Positions 7,347-35,936 of a stretch of DNA of 64,000 nucleotides are shown piece after piece; the first letter of the stretch is position 1; each line of letters begins with the position of its first letter. Origin of the DNA: Escherichia phage SD2; sequence record PQ821640. One strand, given 5' to 3'. The notes under the pieces were generated by a model. The model was given only the letters and a program-made list of their open reading frames with translations. It did no database searches and was not told the origin of the DNA. Position numbers and translations under genes: made by a program.

Positions 7347-7640
7347 TCACATTAAGACACGTTTTGTGTTGATGGGAGCATCATCAAACATGTTAAGAAC
7401 ATTGTCAAGCAGTTTTACTAATTCATTTGTAATTTGTTCCCTTGAACGGGAGGAAGTGAGCACTTTGCTTTCACCAACAATATGCATAACTTTTATAGGA
7501 GCATCTAAAATGATGTTGTGCTGACGATCCTCTTCAAAAGAAGCCAACCATTTCTCATTGTTACCGTGCAAGGCTACAATCACACCAAAACCGTTAATTG
7601 TTTCAGAAATATTCTTAGTTGCTAAAGTAATGTTCATCAT
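7347..7640 (-). CDS. hypothetical protein
   Basis: 97-aa ORF; first gene of the leftward block next to the divergent region. Confidence 0.65.
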   Translation of the reverse strand: MMNITLATKNISETINGFGVIVALHGNNEKWLASFEEDRQHNIILDAPIKVMHIVGESKVLTSSRSREQITNELVKLLDNVLNMFDDAPINTKRVLM

Positions 7641-7696: not shown

Positions 7697-7724
7697 TTGA
7701 CATACTGTTTTATTGTGCTAATCT
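7697..7724 (+). promoter_or_regulatory. sigma70-like promoter (TTGACA-16-TAATCT)
   Basis: TTGACA at 7697-7702, -10-like 7719-7724, upstream of ORF starting 7757. Confidence 0.5.
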
Positions 7725-9216: not shown

Positions 9217-10344
9217 ATGAAATACACGATTTATGGTGATATTGTAAGTGTAAATAAAGATATGGGTGTGGAATCTAATTATCTTCCACCTGGATTCTAT
9301 ACTGTTAGTCGTGATCCCCTTGGCAATTATTTTTTAAGCCGTGGTAATCTAACAGGTGTACCGGATGTTCTGTATGGTGAAACAGAAAAACGAGCAAATC
9401 ACGTTATCCGTACATTCCATCGCCGGAGTGCACAAGGTAAAAATACAGGTTTGCTTCTGACAGGAACTAAGGGCAGTGGTAAAACTATGTTAGCCAAGCT
9501 CATTAGTCGTGACCTTGTAGAAGAAGGTATTCCAACTATTATGGTTACTCAAGCCTACAGTGATGCTAATTTCATTGAACTTATTAGCAAGATCACCGAC
9601 AAAGCAGTGATTATTTTTGACGAGTTTGATAAAGTGTATGAGAAGAAACAAGATCAAGAAGCACTTCTCACTTTGTTAGATGGTACTGGCAGTGGTAATA
9701 AACTGTTTATTCTAACTAAAAACAGTGGCTTTATCTCTGAATTCTTTCTAAATCGTCCTAGTCGTGTGTTTTATAATTTTAATTATGATAAAATCTCACT
9801 AGAAACTATGATTGACTATTTAGATAAAAACCTGGATAACAAAGCACACTTTGATAATTTCCAAAGACTTTGGGATGTAAGTTTAGAGTTGTCCTTTGAT
9901 GTGATCCAAGGTATAGTAGAAGAACTTAATTTCTACCCTGATTTATCCTTTAAAGAATGCATCTCTATGATGGGCGTTTCTTTGGGTGGTGGTAATAAAT
10001 GGGATATCAGCAGCGTTGTTATTAATGGAAAACTTCAGAAAGTTAGCTGGGTATCTAGTTGGCATAACTTCACACCTGCAATCTTTTTAGGTGGTTCGTG
10101 CACACTAGACGTGTACTTGTCATCTCCAAGTGATGCAGACTCTAAAGAAGCCCTTGCTAATAGCTCTTACGTGGTTTTTGATGATGAAGGCGATGCTCGA
10201 ATTCCATTGAATGCGACAAAAATGAAAGCAGATCTTATTACAGGCGGTAAAATCGTTGTGTTTAGTGATGATCCAGAAGATTCTTTCCGTATTGTTCTGG
10301 AACCAACTATCACCAATGGTGCAACTTTGGCAAGTGTGTTTTAA
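9217..10344 (+). CDS. AAA+ family ATPase
   Basis: Walker A GTKGSGKTMLAK; Walker B VIIFDEFD. Confidence 0.75.
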   Translation: MKYTIYGDIVSVNKDMGVESNYLPPGFYTVSRDPLGNYFLSRGNLTGVPDVLYGETEKRANHVIRTFHRRSAQGKNTGLLLTGTKGSGKTMLAKLISRDLVEEGIPTIMVTQAYSDANFIELISKITDKAVIIFDEFDKVYEKKQDQEALLTLLDGTGSGNKLFILTKNSGFISEFFLNRPSRVFYNFNYDKISLETMIDYLDKNLDNKAHFDNFQRLWDVSLELSFDVIQGIVEELNFYPDLSFKECISMMGVSLGGGNKWDISSVVINGKLQKVSWVSSWHNFTPAIFLGGSCTLDVYLSSPSDADSKEALANSSYVVFDDEGDARIPLNATKMKADLITGGKIVVFSDDPEDSFRIVLEPTITNGATLASVF

Positions 10345-10418: not shown

Positions 10419-11408
10419 ATGGCAGCACCAAAATCATGGGAACAATATAAAGAAGAGTGTATACCAATAGCAGAGAGTAAGCAAATCCAAATCTTAGGAT
10501 GGACGGGACAATGGAAAGGGGTCCACACAAAACTTGATTTGTTGTGCCATTGTGGTTATAAATGGGATACTACAAGTATTAACAGTTTTAAATGTGGTAG
10601 CGGTTGTCCACAATGTAGGAGGAAGAATATAAGGAAGTCACAAACAATGTCCGACGATCAACATATTGCAGATTTCTTTTCTACAGGGGAATTTAAGGAA
10701 GGCACTATCTTCACTAACACAGGAACACGGGGTAAAGGATGTAGGAATATTATCTGGATGGTTGAATGTCCTGTTTGCTCTCATGATGAATATGTTCAAG
10801 CAGGTGTTTGTGATGGTAAATTTTACTCTGAAGGAGATAACCTTAAACGAGGGTATATTCCGTGTCGTTGTGGGAACTATCGGTATACAGAAGACCAGAT
10901 CACCTATAGGGTAAAAAAGGAAGTAGAAGGGAAAGGGTATGTCTGGGTAGATTGGATTACCAAACCCTCTTCTATAGGTAAGTTTAAATATCTTTGTCTT
11001 GTGCATGGTGAGCAGATAGGGAGTGCTAATAATTTATTAAGCCTCGGTCGAGGTTGTCCTATGTGTGCTGGTCATAGTCAGCAGCAGTTATATATTAATA
11101 TTGTTAAGGATGATAATATTATAGTTGCTCTTAAGTTTGGTATAGCTAAAGATAGTGATAGGCGATTAAACATTCAAAATAGCCGTAATCTGTTTTTTAT
11201 GGAACGTATTTGTTTATATGATTTTAGCACAGTGAAACAGTGTAAGGCTGCTGAAAGAGCTATAAAGAAAAAATTAAAAACTGGTATTTTAACAGCAAGA
11301 GAGTTGAAAGACGGTCATACAGAAACAGTAAGTGTTTCTGATTTGGAAAATCTTCAAAAAATTATTACACAATATGGTGGCAAGTTAGTATACAATAAGG
11401 AGGTGTAA
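10419..11408 (+). CDS. Cys-rich zinc-ribbon repeat protein, C-terminal T5orf172/GIY-YIG-like region
   Basis: Repeated CxxC pairs (CHCGYKW, GCPQC, CPVCSHDEY, CRCG, GCPMCAGH); AGAGGAG SD. Confidence 0.65.
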   Translation: MAAPKSWEQYKEECIPIAESKQIQILGWTGQWKGVHTKLDLLCHCGYKWDTTSINSFKCGSGCPQCRRKNIRKSQTMSDDQHIADFFSTGEFKEGTIFTNTGTRGKGCRNIIWMVECPVCSHDEYVQAGVCDGKFYSEGDNLKRGYIPCRCGNYRYTEDQITYRVKKEVEGKGYVWVDWITKPSSIGKFKYLCLVHGEQIGSANNLLSLGRGCPMCAGHSQQQLYINIVKDDNIIVALKFGIAKDSDRRLNIQNSRNLFFMERICLYDFSTVKQCKAAERAIKKKLKTGILTARELKDGHTETVSVSDLENLQKIITQYGGKLVYNKEV

Positions 11409-11960
11409 ATGCGGATTACTGATAAGTATGTGTTCTTCTTTTCAGCAAAAGATGAATTTAGCAACTGGTATCTATCATCTTTTATTGAACCTTTAGCACC
11501 CAAGTATAATAATTCTATTACAAGTTCTGTTGAATTTACTTGTGTGGAACAATATATGATGTGGAGAAAAGCATGTTTGTTTTATGATTACAGTATTGCA
11601 TCTTCTATTTTAACCGGAGATCTAAGATATACAGGAGAAAAAGAACAAGCATATTATAAGCGACTAGGCAGATTAGTTAAAGATTATGATGAAGATACCT
11701 GGACTTCTTTACGGGAGAAGATTGTCAAACGTGGTTTGTATCTTAAATACACACAAAATGAAGATCTCAAAAATAAACTTATAACCTACGCAGATAAGGA
11801 GTTCGTAGAGGCAAGCCCTTATGATTCTATTTATGGTATCAAAATGGGGATGTGGGATCGTGACGTGGAAAATAAGGACTGTTGGAAAGGACAAAATCTT
11901 TTAGGAAAATGGCATACAGACCTTGCTGTTTATCTAAAAGCACAATCTGATATTTCCTGA
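11409..11960 (+). CDS. NADAR (YbiA-like, DUF1768) domain protein
   Basis: FFFSAKDEFSNWYLSSF, EQYMMWRKA and GQNLLGKWHTDLAVYL align with my recollection of E. coli YbiA; AAGGAGG SD. Confidence 0.7.
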   Translation: MRITDKYVFFFSAKDEFSNWYLSSFIEPLAPKYNNSITSSVEFTCVEQYMMWRKACLFYDYSIASSILTGDLRYTGEKEQAYYKRLGRLVKDYDEDTWTSLREKIVKRGLYLKYTQNEDLKNKLITYADKEFVEASPYDSIYGIKMGMWDRDVENKDCWKGQNLLGKWHTDLAVYLKAQSDIS

Positions 11961-12020
11961 TATTTTGAAAATTTTTATTTTTATAAAAAGGGGTGTGGGT
12001 TTCATGTACGGAAATTCACC

Positions 12021-12041
12021 CTCTGAATAATATATTCAGAG
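12021..12041. repeat. perfect inverted repeat CTCTGAATA-ATA-TATTCAGAG
   Basis: 9-bp stem, 3-nt loop, read directly; overlaps a second palindrome CAGAGTA...TACTCTG (12037-12062). Confidence 0.6.
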
Positions 12042-12174
12042 TAAATATTATTTTGTACTCTGTTAATAAATTATTTAATTTGTTTGTTGGATTATGATAT
12101 CTGGTTTTTAAAAGGCATACTATCTCTTAACTACTACTTATAACAGAACAGTAAAATCATTTTTATAAAAAGGA

Positions 12175-12382
12175 CAAAATTATTTAAAGTTTTTACAGAT
12201 TTTTGGATACAAATTTTGAAAATGAAAAGTTCAAGTTTGGTCAAAATTATTTAAAGTTTTTGTATGTATTTCTATCCAGATTTTGAAAATGAAAACTTCA
12301 ATTTTTTAAAAATTCCCCAGTTTATTTAAAGTTTTTTTACCTTTTTCCGTAGAAAAATCAAAAATGAAAAGTTCAATTTCGT
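12175..12382. repeat. three tandem direct repeats of about 68 bp
   Basis: Each unit begins TTATTTAAAGTTTTT and ends TTTTGAAAATGAAAAGTTCAA; AT-rich, non-coding. Confidence 0.7.
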
Positions 12383-12400
12383 GTTTTTATGGGTATGCGT

Positions 12401-12515
12401 ATGATAATCATTCTCATTTGTAAATGAGAATCATTATCATTTAATTATGTAAATGATAAGCATTCTCACTAAGAGAATGAGAATCATTAGCAAATGAGAA
12501 TTTTTCTCATTTGCA
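12401..12515. promoter_or_regulatory. cluster of five or more Fur-box-like dyad motifs
   Basis: ATGATAATCATTCTCATT, AATGAGAATCATTATCATT, ATGATAAGCATTCTCA, GAGAATGAGAATCATTAGC, AATGAGAATTTTTCTCATT; compare E. coli Fur box GATAATGATAATCATTATC. Confidence 0.45.
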
Positions 12516-12772
12516 GAATAACGCGCAGGGGCGGTGTTTGTCTCGCGCTCCCGTGTCCCCTCGCCATACAATAAGAATAGCATAACCAACAACAAAAGCA
12601 AGCGATTATTTTTATCTTTACATTTCTTTACAAATTTATTTTAGACGAGCTACCGGCGATCAACCTTCCAACCAGTGCCCCTGGTATGTTAGCCCCGCCT
12701 TTACGCCGTGGGGGTGGCGCTTCCTCTTCTGTATGTAAAACAGTATAAGCCCGATCCCTGGGCTTGTCAAGA

Positions 12773-13039
12773 TTATTTTTTGTTTTCTTGCCAGGATAGG
12801 ACACCTAACCAAAAATACATGTCGCCCCGTGCCCCTGGCGGGATCTTGCTTTCCCCGCCGCCACTGCAAGCCCATAAATAACCATTTACGAACGTATCAA
12901 AGTGATCTATCTCTTCCACCTTATGATCGCCCAGGTTGAGAACGGTTTCAACCTTTAAGCCCGTTGCGCTTGCTACCTGGTGCACCGTGCCGCCTTGCCA
13001 GCCCAATGAGTGCATGAGATGTAAAGGAGTATTTGTCAT
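12773..13039 (-). CDS. hypothetical protein inside a GC-rich, compositionally atypical segment
   Basis: 88-aa ORF on the opposite strand to the surrounding plus block, within 12520-13130 which is visibly GC-richer; overlapping track ORFs in other frames judged spurious. Confidence 0.4.
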   Translation of the reverse strand: MTNTPLHLMHSLGWQGGTVHQVASATGLKVETVLNLGDHKVEEIDHFDTFVNGYLWACSGGGESKIPPGARGDMYFWLGVLSWQENKK

Positions 13040-13149
13040 GGTATCGCCCTTTCTTTGATGTGCGCCCTGGTTGGCGCGGTAGAAAGATAATAGCCGTTTC
13101 CTTTATAGATAGCAAGCAAAAAAGAAATGAAAAAAGATTAAAAAAATGG

Positions 13150-13209
13150 TTGACGTTCCTCACCTGGTAGCGTAGTATTCATCTTGTCGAGGGGCGGCAA
13201 TAGTGCCGC
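13150..13209 (+). promoter_or_regulatory. promoter (TTGACG-17-TAGTAT) plus 5' hairpin GCGGC-AATAGT-GCCGC
   Basis: Read directly; upstream of ORF 13234. Confidence 0.6.
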
Positions 13210-13233
13210 TCATAACAGAAGAGAGAAATAATC

Positions 13234-35123: not shown

Positions 35124-35936
35124 TTATTTAGTCAAATGATCTTCTATCATTTTTATGAAAGCAGGATTGCTAAAAGCATCTGCGGCCTTTTCTCGATAAA
35201 CAAAGACTCCTCTATCTTCGTAAAGAAGAGTTTCTTCGTAATTAATTCCTGGGTTAACAACAATCATTTTTGTACCCATATTAAGTGCAGGGAATAATTC
35301 CCAATTAAAATTGATAACTTGGTTTGAACATCCTACTACTACAACCAAATCTTGCATGGTCAAAGTATCAAACAAGTGAGCCATATCTGCATACAAAGGT
35401 GCAGCCTCACCAAAAAATACAACATTAGGCTTCACCCAGTTGTAATCATCTATGTTTATACTGTTGTAACCAATATCTACCAGTGTTTTGTAATCCCCAG
35501 GATGCATACGGTAAACTACTTCAGGAAGATATCCGTGCACGTGGATAACAGAATCCCTGTCTACACCTGCTCGCTCTAGTAGATCATCAACGTTTGTTGT
35601 CAAGTTTACTACTTGGTTAGGATATTCCTTAAACCACTTTGCTATTTGAATATGTGCAGCATTAGGTTGTACATCTTTAAGCTCAACACGTCTTTTGTTA
35701 TAAAATTCGTGTGTTTTGGCATACAAATCCATACCGTTTTCGTCTACACCACCAACCACTGGAAGATCTGGTGATGTTCTCACACGATAACCTGCTTGGA
35801 AAGCTCCAATATCGCAGATCTCTTCTAAATCCCATTCTTCCCATAAGGCACGACCACTATCTGTGTCTGTTCGGAATGTTCGAATCCCACTGTCTGCACT
35901 TAAACCAGCTCCACTAACAAAAATTACTCTTCGCAT
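35124..35936 (-). CDS. Sir2-family (sirtuin-like) NAD-binding protein, no Cys4 zinc module seen
   Basis: GAGLSADSGIRTFR, TTNVDDLLERAG, HVHG, PNVVFFGE, VVVGCS match sirtuin core motifs as I recall them. Confidence 0.75.
   Translation of the reverse strand: MRRVIFVSGAGLSADSGIRTFRTDTDSGRALWEEWDLEEICDIGAFQAGYRVRTSPDLPVVGGVDENGMDLYAKTHEFYNKRRVELKDVQPNAAHIQIAKWFKEYPNQVVNLTTNVDDLLERAGVDRDSVIHVHGYLPEVVYRMHPGDYKTLVDIGYNSINIDDYNWVKPNVVFFGEAAPLYADMAHLFDTLTMQDLVVVVGCSNQVINFNWELFPALNMGTKMIVVNPGINYEETLLYEDRGVFVYREKAADAFSNPAFIKMIEDHLTK

Follow-up and report, generated by a model that had tools for sequence, protein, structure and literature searches.

An orphan NADAR-domain protein of Escherichia phage SD2 nearly identical to the published anti-DarTG1 factor AdfN^Bas60

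The locus, its neighbours and its distribution

The window analysed here, a 64,000-nucleotide stretch of Escherichia phage SD2 (record PQ821640), carries a gene whose product is clearly a NADAR-domain protein and which follows an AAA ATPase gene and an endonuclease gene in a rightward array (Table 1). Identity of the region reaches 98.7% with Escherichia phage AV123 and 96% to 98% with many Justusliebigvirus genomes, and the window accordingly stems from a phage of this genus. Justusliebigvirus belongs to the Stephanstirmvirinae, the rV5/phi92-like myoviruses of Escherichia coli.

Table 1. Features of the NADAR locus, and residues of its product aligned with the active site of Phytophthora nicotianae NADAR (PnNADAR)
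Feature	Position	Strand	Remarks
AAA ATPase gene	9217..10344	rightward array	first in the local order ATPase-endonuclease-NADAR
T5orf172 (GIY-YIG-related) homing-endonuclease-type protein	10419..11408	+	329 aa; Pfam, PHROGs
Shine-Dalgarno sequence AAGGAGG	11397..11403	+	5 nt before ATG; read from sequence
NADAR-domain CDS, orthologue of AdfN^Bas60	11409..11960	+	183 aa + stop; ORF, profiles, homology, model
PnNADAR E43, here E47	codon GAA 11547..11549	+	putative distal-ribose-positioning Glu; equivalent to C7 DarG1 E88, AdfN^T4 E36
PnNADAR K50, here K54	codon AAA 11568..11570	+	putative pyrophosphate-binding Lys; equivalent to C7 DarG1 K95, AdfN^T4 K43
PnNADAR K75, here K84
PnNADAR G78, here G87
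PnNADAR R79, here R88
PnNADAR Y84, here Y93
PnNADAR D86, here E95			substituted
PnNADAR W89, here W98
PnNADAR R93, here R102
PnNADAR E125, here E134	codon GAG 11808..11810	+	putative catalytic acidic residue; equivalent to SCO5665 E167
PnNADAR D130, here D139
PnNADAR W133, here Y142			substituted
Two adjacent stem-loops after the NADAR stop codon	11995..12041 (11995-12019, 12021-12041)	+	RNA fold

The NADAR start codon (ATG at 11409) comes immediately after the stop codon of the upstream gene (TAA, 11406-11408), and because the two abut directly, the arrangement suggests co-transcription and possibly coupled translation of the two genes. Beyond the NADAR stop codon, the two predicted stem-loops fold with a free energy of -22.8 kcal/mol (z = -2.25 versus shuffled sequences); they were unflagged by a consensus terminator scan and may, tentatively, represent the terminator of the ATPase-endonuclease-NADAR cluster. 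Searches for tRNA genes and Rfam families, covering both the window and the non-coding stretch past the NADAR gene, returned nothing above threshold, and the consensus promoter scan, with 29 promoter-like sites versus 26 expected, was uninformative. Since the promoter and terminator scans gave no usable signal, expression timing was read from gene position only. The leftward genes stop near position 7640 and the rightward ones start near 7697, which marks a divergent strand switch; the NADAR gene lies approximately 3.7 kb beyond it, within a rightward array of small genes of about 30 kb, which in Bas61 comprises some 85 genes, mostly small and of unassigned function. Such an array has the usual appearance of an early region, and early expression of the NADAR gene appears probable. 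The original prediction, which had put the gene at the head of the early region next to a Cys-rich zinc-ribbon protein, was thus roughly right about position, the early timing following from that position only.

The description of the neighbour held in part. The upstream protein is indeed adjacent and Cys-rich, with 17 cysteines arranged in CxC...CxxC pairs, but 'zinc ribbon' does not cover all of its domains: the Pfam CapR profile (PF21817) matches it in 3 stretches with 89.4 bits, corresponding to three CapR-type zinc-finger stretches, its C-terminal part matches T5orf172 with 21.5 bits, and in PHROGs it matches phrog_681, 'endonuclease' (E = 4.7e-68). The very same domain arrangement has been described by Barth et al. 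(PMC10448857) for genes of T5orf172 (GIY-YIG-related) homing endonucleases with repeated, recombining CapR DNA-binding modules. The length of the endonuclease varies from 329 aa here to 325 in Bas61, 390 in Bas62, 467 in Bas60 and 402 in Phapecoctavirus ukendt, and its identity ranges from 99.7% down to approximately 69% among phages in which the NADAR protein is at least 96.7% identical, with low values of about 69% to 84%. Two small genes separate the endonuclease from the NADAR gene in ukendt, and in Klebsiella phage FBKp34 the two are non-adjacent. A functional pairing of the NADAR protein with its Cys-rich neighbour was rejected on these grounds, namely the homing-endonuclease type of the neighbour, its variable length and identity, and its separability in ukendt and FBKp34. 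Judged from its domain content and distribution, the neighbour is a selfish gene and not a functional partner.

No ADP-ribosyltransferase (ART) or DarT domain was detected among the neighbours of the NADAR gene, i.e., the AAA ATPase, the CapR/T5orf172 endonuclease and the non-coding stretch. Because no ADP-ribosyltransferase gene lies nearby, the NADAR gene is an orphan, encoded by the phage without a cognate DarT/ART gene alongside.

The NADAR protein is well conserved among related phages. It is 100% identical in phages VEcB, AV123, BME3 and AMO3598, at least 96.7% identical at the amino acid level in 54 Justusliebigvirus-type records, including phi92 gp223, and approximately 57% to 64% identical in sister genera. 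The nearest relatives outside of the subfamily (40% to 46% identity) are found on jumbo-phage-like contigs of 310 to 455 kb, where the homologue lies beside genes for NAMPT, an NMNAT-like CTP_transf_like protein and a phosphoribosyltransferase. When bacterial chromosomal relatives or a donor were sought, all 3 of the long contigs examined (310-455 kb) looked like jumbo phages and not bacteria, and a bacterial donor was not found among them. In public databases, the approximately 55 records of the gene are mostly labelled 'hypothetical protein', with a few named 'GTP cyclohydrolase II' or 'DNA methyltransferase'; 'YbiA-like N-glycosidase' is also among the names in use. We regard the latter name and especially 'GTP cyclohydrolase II' as annotation carry-overs, the cyclohydrolase label most likely deriving from RibA-NADAR fusion proteins.

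Fold, active site and placement within the NADAR superfamily

The NADAR superfamily corresponds to Pfam PF08719, also known as DUF1768 and COG3236. In profile searches, the phage protein scored well above the thresholds of both the Pfam NADAR profile (124.6 bits, threshold 35.1; E = 5.8e-36, profile positions 9-154 of 163) and NCBIfam TIGR02464, the riboflavin biosynthesis intermediates N-glycosidase family (109.5 bits, threshold 73.7). In PHROGs, the protein matches phrog_1017 (E = 1.3e-49), a family of unknown function. The AlphaFold2 model, built on 35 homologues, has a pLDDT of 96.9 and a pTM of 0.91 and comprises 4 short strands and 7 helices, consistent with the alpha-helical core and small flanking beta-sheets of a predicted YbiA-like fold. 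A Foldseek search against the PDB at E <= 0.001 retrieved only PnNADAR (8BAU, TM 0.77) and E. coli YbiA (2B3W, TM 0.69-0.75). The FSNW-type and LLGKW-type motifs that had been pointed out at the N and C termini are literally there, at residues 17-20 and 164-168, and in the profile alignment they stand opposite the FSNF and NRLGYLL segments of YbiA. The profile matches, the fold and the catalytic residues hence agree with the NADAR-domain assignment of the original prediction.

Active-site residues were mapped through HMMER alignments to 8BAU, with the site of PnNADAR taken as defined in PMC11543638. All residues that contact ADP-ribose or participate in catalysis in PnNADAR are identical in the phage protein, save the 2 substituted positions, D86 to E95 and W133 to Y142. 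Across the alignment of 35 homologues, E47, K54, K84, G87, W98, E134 and D139 are invariant; the conserved NADAR set of S18, E47, K54 (a Glu followed 7 positions on by a Lys) and E134 is complete and equally invariant in the 35 homologues. The roles of the residues lining the ADP-ribose site have been described for PnNADAR by Schuller et al. (PMC11543638). Mutation of the Glu-(7)-Lys pair results in loss of function in both the C7 DarG1 of E. coli (E88/K95) and AdfN^T4 (E36/K43). The position of PnNADAR E125 is occupied by Asp in DarG1 (C7 D171) and by His in T4-type phage NADARs (PMC11543638), and in SCO5665, the exchanges E167D and E167Q each abolish activity (PMC12945103). Collectively, the NADAR protein of the window has all of the sequence features expected of an active NADAR and is predicted to be catalytically competent, with the roles of individual residues presumed by analogy with PnNADAR, C7 DarG1 and SCO5665.

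Four NADAR families are distinguished in the literature, namely, general NADAR, YbiA-type, T4 phage-type and DarG1 (PMC12945103). A profile of the phage family scored 127.7 bits against PnNADAR versus 64.8 bits against YbiA, and the DarG1 structure (8BAT) was not reached even at E <= 10. PADLOC returned no match to DarG, its only hit being a NADAR model of a candidate system, PDC-M42C, with 117 bits. A BLASTP comparison with T4 gp30.3 revealed no detectable pairwise similarity (E = 1.7), and hhalign gave a probability of 3% (E = 0.013) for an alignment that is weak but in register, with the His of T4 opposite Glu134. In the published tree, AdfN^Bas60 groups with bacterial NADARs that are neither DarT-associated nor YbiA-type, its acquisition being separate from that of AdfN^T4 (PMC11825919).

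By these profile and tree comparisons, the protein is placed in the general NADAR family, where it comes closest to PnNADAR, and outside of the YbiA and T4 gp30.3 branches. Membership in the T4 gp30.3 clade was rejected in view of the BLASTP and hhalign results and of Glu134 in place of His. The DarG1/BC4488 subfamily was rejected as well, given that Glu134 is not Asp, that there is no darT gene nearby and no match to 8BAT or to DarG in PADLOC, and that the N-terminal extension of DarG1 (beta1-beta2-alpha1) is absent: the profile match begins at residue 13 (profile position 9), and N-terminally the model places just the predicted first strand of the core, at residues 7-10. The features of YbiA-type proteins, Glu134 and the TIGR02464 match, are both present, yet they do not discriminate, being common to the general NADAR family. 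The designation 'YbiA-like' in the original prediction therefore describes the fold and the Glu-type active site accurately and the subfamily wrongly.

Relationship to AdfN^Bas60 and proposed function

The protein differs from bas60_0111 of phage PaulScherrer (QXV83846.1) by only 2 substitutions, T126A and A178T, both outside the active-site positions (181 of 183 amino acids and 548 of 552 nucleotides identical), and is likewise identical at 181 of 183 positions to bas61_0107; the bas60_0111 gene is syntenic with that in the window. PaulScherrer (bas60_), EmilieFrey (bas61_) and JohannJBalmer (bas62_) are members of the BASEL collection. The bas60_ locus tags led to the experimentally tested protein; the name AdfN^Bas60 was given to the NADAR of Bas60, Bas61 and Bas62 by Johannesman et al. 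(Nat Commun 2025; PMC11825919; preprint PMC11257639). When expressed ectopically in E. coli, AdfN^Bas60 neutralises DarT1 toxicity without phage and lets three heterologous phages, RB69, T5 and Bas25, form plaques again at full titre on DarTG1 hosts, but it is of no help to T5 against the thymidine-modifying DarTG2 (PMC11825919). The functional data for the clade were all obtained with the Bas60 allele, expressed ectopically. The near-identity of the 2 proteins ties the window gene to one with published in vivo evidence and supports the proposal, made from the nucleotide sequence, that the gene serves as a counter-defence against ADP-ribosylating host systems; protection against DarT-type toxicity, which had been set beforehand as a test, is on record for AdfN^Bas60 against DarTG1 only. 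Thus, the anti-DarTG1 function is, to all practical intents, a correct reading, but one already published as AdfN^Bas60.

Very probably, then, this orthologue of AdfN^Bas60 is a stand-alone NADAR, similar to an orphan antitoxin, which cancels DarTG1 by de-ADP-ribosylating guanine in DNA. DarT1 places ADP-ribose on the N2 of guanine in DNA, and NADARs hydrolyse this linkage (PMC11543638). During infection of a DarTG1 host, DarT1 would modify the N2 amino group of guanines in the phage DNA, leading to a replication block. The phage enzyme would then hold the ADP-ribose moiety through contacts of Lys54, Arg88, Trp98 and Arg102 with the pyrophosphate; Tyr93 would stack on the adenine, and the distal ribose would be positioned by Glu47. 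The N-glycosidic bond between ribose and guanine would then be hydrolysed, with Glu134 as the catalytic acid/base. Unmodified DNA would be restored in this way, just as it is by the host DarG1 antitoxin in uninfected cells. Hydrolysis of ADP-ribosylated guanine N2 (G-N2-ADPr) by AdfN^Bas60, the 2-residue variant, may be expected from its neutralisation of DarT1 in vivo, and defence against DarT1 would presumably be the main role of the window gene in its native phage. Cihlova et al. found that YbiA and T4 gp30.3 are active on G-ADPr in vitro, yet do not rescue cells from DarT1 (PMC11125620). The in vivo result for AdfN^Bas60 is meaningful because in vitro activity on G-ADPr does not guarantee protection of the cell; and because activity and cell protection come apart in YbiA and T4 gp30.3, the fold alone cannot give the physiological targets.

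We consider it possible, albeit tentatively, that the protein is a broader nucleic-acid de-ADP-ribosylase, in which the Glu-type E134 would enable removal of ADP-ribose from both cytosine and guanine, in DNA and/or RNA, and whose selective value would lie in countering ARTs of defences beyond DarTG1, whether pierisin/ScARP-like or belonging to defence systems as yet undiscovered. The substrate range observed for characterised members of the superfamily points in this direction: in DNA as well as in RNA, both C-ADPr and G-ADPr were substrates of Glu-type NADARs and of members of the YbiA family, while the activity of DarG1 (Asp-type) and of the T4 NADAR (His-type) was confined to G-ADPr (PMC12945103, 2026). 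Since the window protein has the Glu-type residue and groups with the general NADAR family, with a score of 127.7 bits to 8BAU and DarG1 out of reach, a substrate range wider than that of AdfN^T4 is plausible. Nevertheless, according to the table in PMC12945103, none of the known anti-phage systems ADP-ribosylates cytosine, and the in vivo phenotype recorded so far is confined to protection against DarTG1 (PMC11825919). This broader activity extends the explanation by DarT1 reversal and does not compete with it. Were it to hold, the NADAR, together with the genes for a macrodomain protein, a sirtuin and NAMPT elsewhere in the genome, would form a multi-layered toolkit acting on ADP-ribosylation and NAD+.

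The same genes bear on an involvement in NAD+ and ADP-ribose small-molecule metabolism, in which the substrates would be soluble ADP-ribose derivatives or N-ribosyl by-products, arising from NAD+ salvage or serving as immune signals, and not DNA adducts. The homologues with 40% to 46% identity on jumbo-phage-like contigs are encoded next to NAD+ salvage genes, a setting suggestive of different or further substrates, and the Bas61 genome encodes NAMPT, PRPP synthetase, a macrodomain protein and a sirtuin. In this lineage, however, NAMPT-type genes are located tens of kilobases away from the NADAR gene, outside of its cluster, the near-identical AdfN^Bas60 needs no phage factor to neutralise a DNA-modifying toxin directly (PMC11825919), and NADARs of this branch are not known to act on a soluble substrate. 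We accordingly regard such a metabolic role as improbable. Least credible of all is a housekeeping function as a YbiA-type N-glycosidase that destroys reactive intermediates of the riboflavin pathway, as implied by the database names 'YbiA-like N-glycosidase' and 'GTP cyclohydrolase II' and by the TIGR02464 score well above its cutoff. The family profile favours PnNADAR by the margin given above, the published tree places AdfN^Bas60 among bacterial NADARs outside of the YbiA group, no rib genes, either fused or clustered, are annotated anywhere in the Bas61 genome, and a lytic phage has no obvious need of riboflavin damage control. A riboflavin N-glycosidase as the primary function was rejected on the basis of the profile comparison and the lack of rib genes.

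The reversal of DarT1 modification by an AdfN-type enzyme remains our preferred interpretation. Our analysis confirms existing knowledge and does not extend it, showing that a reading of the bare nucleotide sequence recognised the anti-DarTG1 counter-defence gene correctly. The practical gain concerns annotation, in that approximately 55 records could be re-annotated as AdfN-type NADAR DNA ADP-ribosylglycohydrolases. For candidates for phage therapy from the rV5/phi92 group, resistance to E. coli strains with DarTG1 can be predicted from the presence of the gene.

Comparison with known NADAR systems

The closest known counterpart is AdfN^Bas60 itself, which shares with the window the gene, the genomic position and the phage genus, and in which the active-site residues are all identical; the tested allele differs from the one described here by T126A and A178T. 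The founding member of the NADAR-type anti-DarT factors is AdfN^T4 (T4 gp30.3). AdfN^T4 and the window protein are both phage-encoded orphan NADARs and both carry the Glu...(7)...Lys motif, whereas AdfN^T4 has a His in the position of Glu134. AdfN^T4 and AdfN^Bas60 alike reverse guanine ADP-ribosylation by DarT1 and leave DarTG2 unaffected, but AdfN^T4 is fully effective only during infection by Tevenvirinae; in uninfected cells, DarT1 is neutralised by AdfN^Bas60 and not by AdfN^T4 (PMC11825919).

With respect to cellular proteins, the closest solved structure is that of the NADAR of Phytophthora nicotianae (8BAU; 127.7 bits, TM 0.77, 28% identity), with which the window protein has in common the Glu-type catalytic triad and the ADP-ribose-binding residues; PnNADAR is a hydrolase of guanine-linked ADP-ribose without a link to DarT (PMC11543638). 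The general NADARs, including PnNADAR, SCO5665 and the sigma70-linked NADAR of E. coli, are cellular proteins, either eukaryotic or bacterial, whereas the protein described here is encoded by a phage and would serve in counter-defence. E. coli YbiA (2B3W; COG3236) resembles it in fold (TM 0.69-0.75), in the FSNF/FSNW and NxLG motifs and in the Glu at the catalytic position, but is more distant (64.8 bits), has a housekeeping function and failed to protect cells against DarT1 (PMC11125620). Finally, the chemistry and the substrate of DarG1 (PDB 8BAT), the DarT1-associated antitoxin of the BC4488 subfamily, are those that the phage enzyme would mimic, as published for AdfN^Bas60. DarG1, however, possesses an N-terminal beta-beta-alpha extension forming a basic groove for single-stranded DNA, a catalytic Asp and a gene adjacent to darT1, none of which is found for the window protein.

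NAD+-related genes in the neighbourhood of NADAR and beyond

Outside the Stephanstirmvirinae, the closest homologues of the NADAR protein are found on L008, L010 and L012, jumbo-phage-like metagenome contigs of 310-455 kb. The NADAR neighbours on these contigs comprise NAMPT, an NMNAT-like CTP_transf_like protein and a phosphoribosyltransferase, along with nucleoside 2-deoxyribosyltransferase-like proteins and GIY-YIG endonucleases. Collectively, the contigs represent a distinct and recurrent NADAR neighbourhood tied to NAD+ salvage.

Within the SD2 lineage, the window carries a gene for a phage Sir2-family protein of 270 aa (Pfam SIR2, 80 bits), labelled 'sirtuin family protein' in the Justusliebigvirus Bas61. 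Further genes of this lineage lie just beyond the window: bas61_0068, which encodes a putative macrodomain protein and adjoins a phosphoribosyltransferase gene, and bas61_0254 and bas61_0255, for PRPP synthetase and NAMPT. Together with the Sir2-family protein, these form a scattered NAD+/ADP-ribose toolkit. The putative macrodomain of bas61_0068 could be a candidate AdfM-like factor directed against the thymidine-modifying DarTG2.

Public annotation and the non-coding stretch downstream

Records of proteins 98-100% identical to the window NADAR are named inconsistently: the majority read 'hypothetical protein', with 'GTP cyclohydrolase II' in AV123 and KMB37, 'DNA methyltransferase' in Eryne, 'putative YbiA-like N-glycosidase' in the BASEL phages and 'NADAR family protein' as a further label. 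Several near-identical genomes were deposited under names of Campylobacter, Serratia or Salmonella phages.

Directly 3' of the NADAR gene, ~1.27 kb of the plus strand is devoid of a convincing ORF, which is unusual in a genome otherwise densely coding. A similar-sized gap follows the NADAR gene of Phapecoctavirus ukendt (L005, 4543-5805). The stretch divides into AT-rich repeats, a palindrome/iteron cluster and a GC-rich island. Its AT-rich part (22-26% GC) contains three copies of a ~70-79 nt unit with the core TTATTTAAAGTTTTT...TTTTGAAAATGAAAAGTTCAA. Rfam and tRNA scans of the stretch returned no matches above threshold, nor did the minus-strand ORF within the island match Pfam. Possible roles for the stretch are as an origin of replication or as a hub of regulation.

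Features of the window around the NADAR gene and the Sir2-family gene
Feature	Window position	Strand	Remark
AAA+ ATPase gene	9217-10344		375 aa
CapR/T5orf172 gene	10419-11408	+	T5orf172 homing-endonuclease type, 3 CapR Zn-finger modules
Stretch with no convincing plus-strand ORF	11961-13233	+	
Repeat unit copy 1	12159-12237		AT-rich part
Repeat unit copy 2	12226-12304		AT-rich part
Repeat unit copy 3	12301-12379		AT-rich part
Dense palindrome/iteron cluster	12396-12515		made of ATGAGAATCATT-like units
GC-rich island	12600-13100		GC up to 53.5%
88-aa ORF	12773..13039	-	inside GC-rich island
Sir2-family gene	35124-35936	-	

Genes upstream of NADAR

Both Justusliebigvirus and Phapecoctavirus keep the AAA+ ATPase (phrog_2376, E = 6.6e-108) directly 5' of the endonuclease-NADAR pair. 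Its name in public databases is either 'FtsH-like protease' or 'ATPase or Zn metalloprotease'; our domain search of the protein recovered an AAA domain only, and no protease domain.

Across phages otherwise near-identical in this region, the CapR/T5orf172 protein ranges from 325 to 467 aa, with identity falling from 99.7% to ~69%. Genetic exchange may have one of its boundaries at the gene for this protein, next to the counter-defence gene. Repeat recombination and mobility have been described for the homing endonuclease genes of ICP1 (PMC10448857), and the strong variation in length and identity fits the same processes here.
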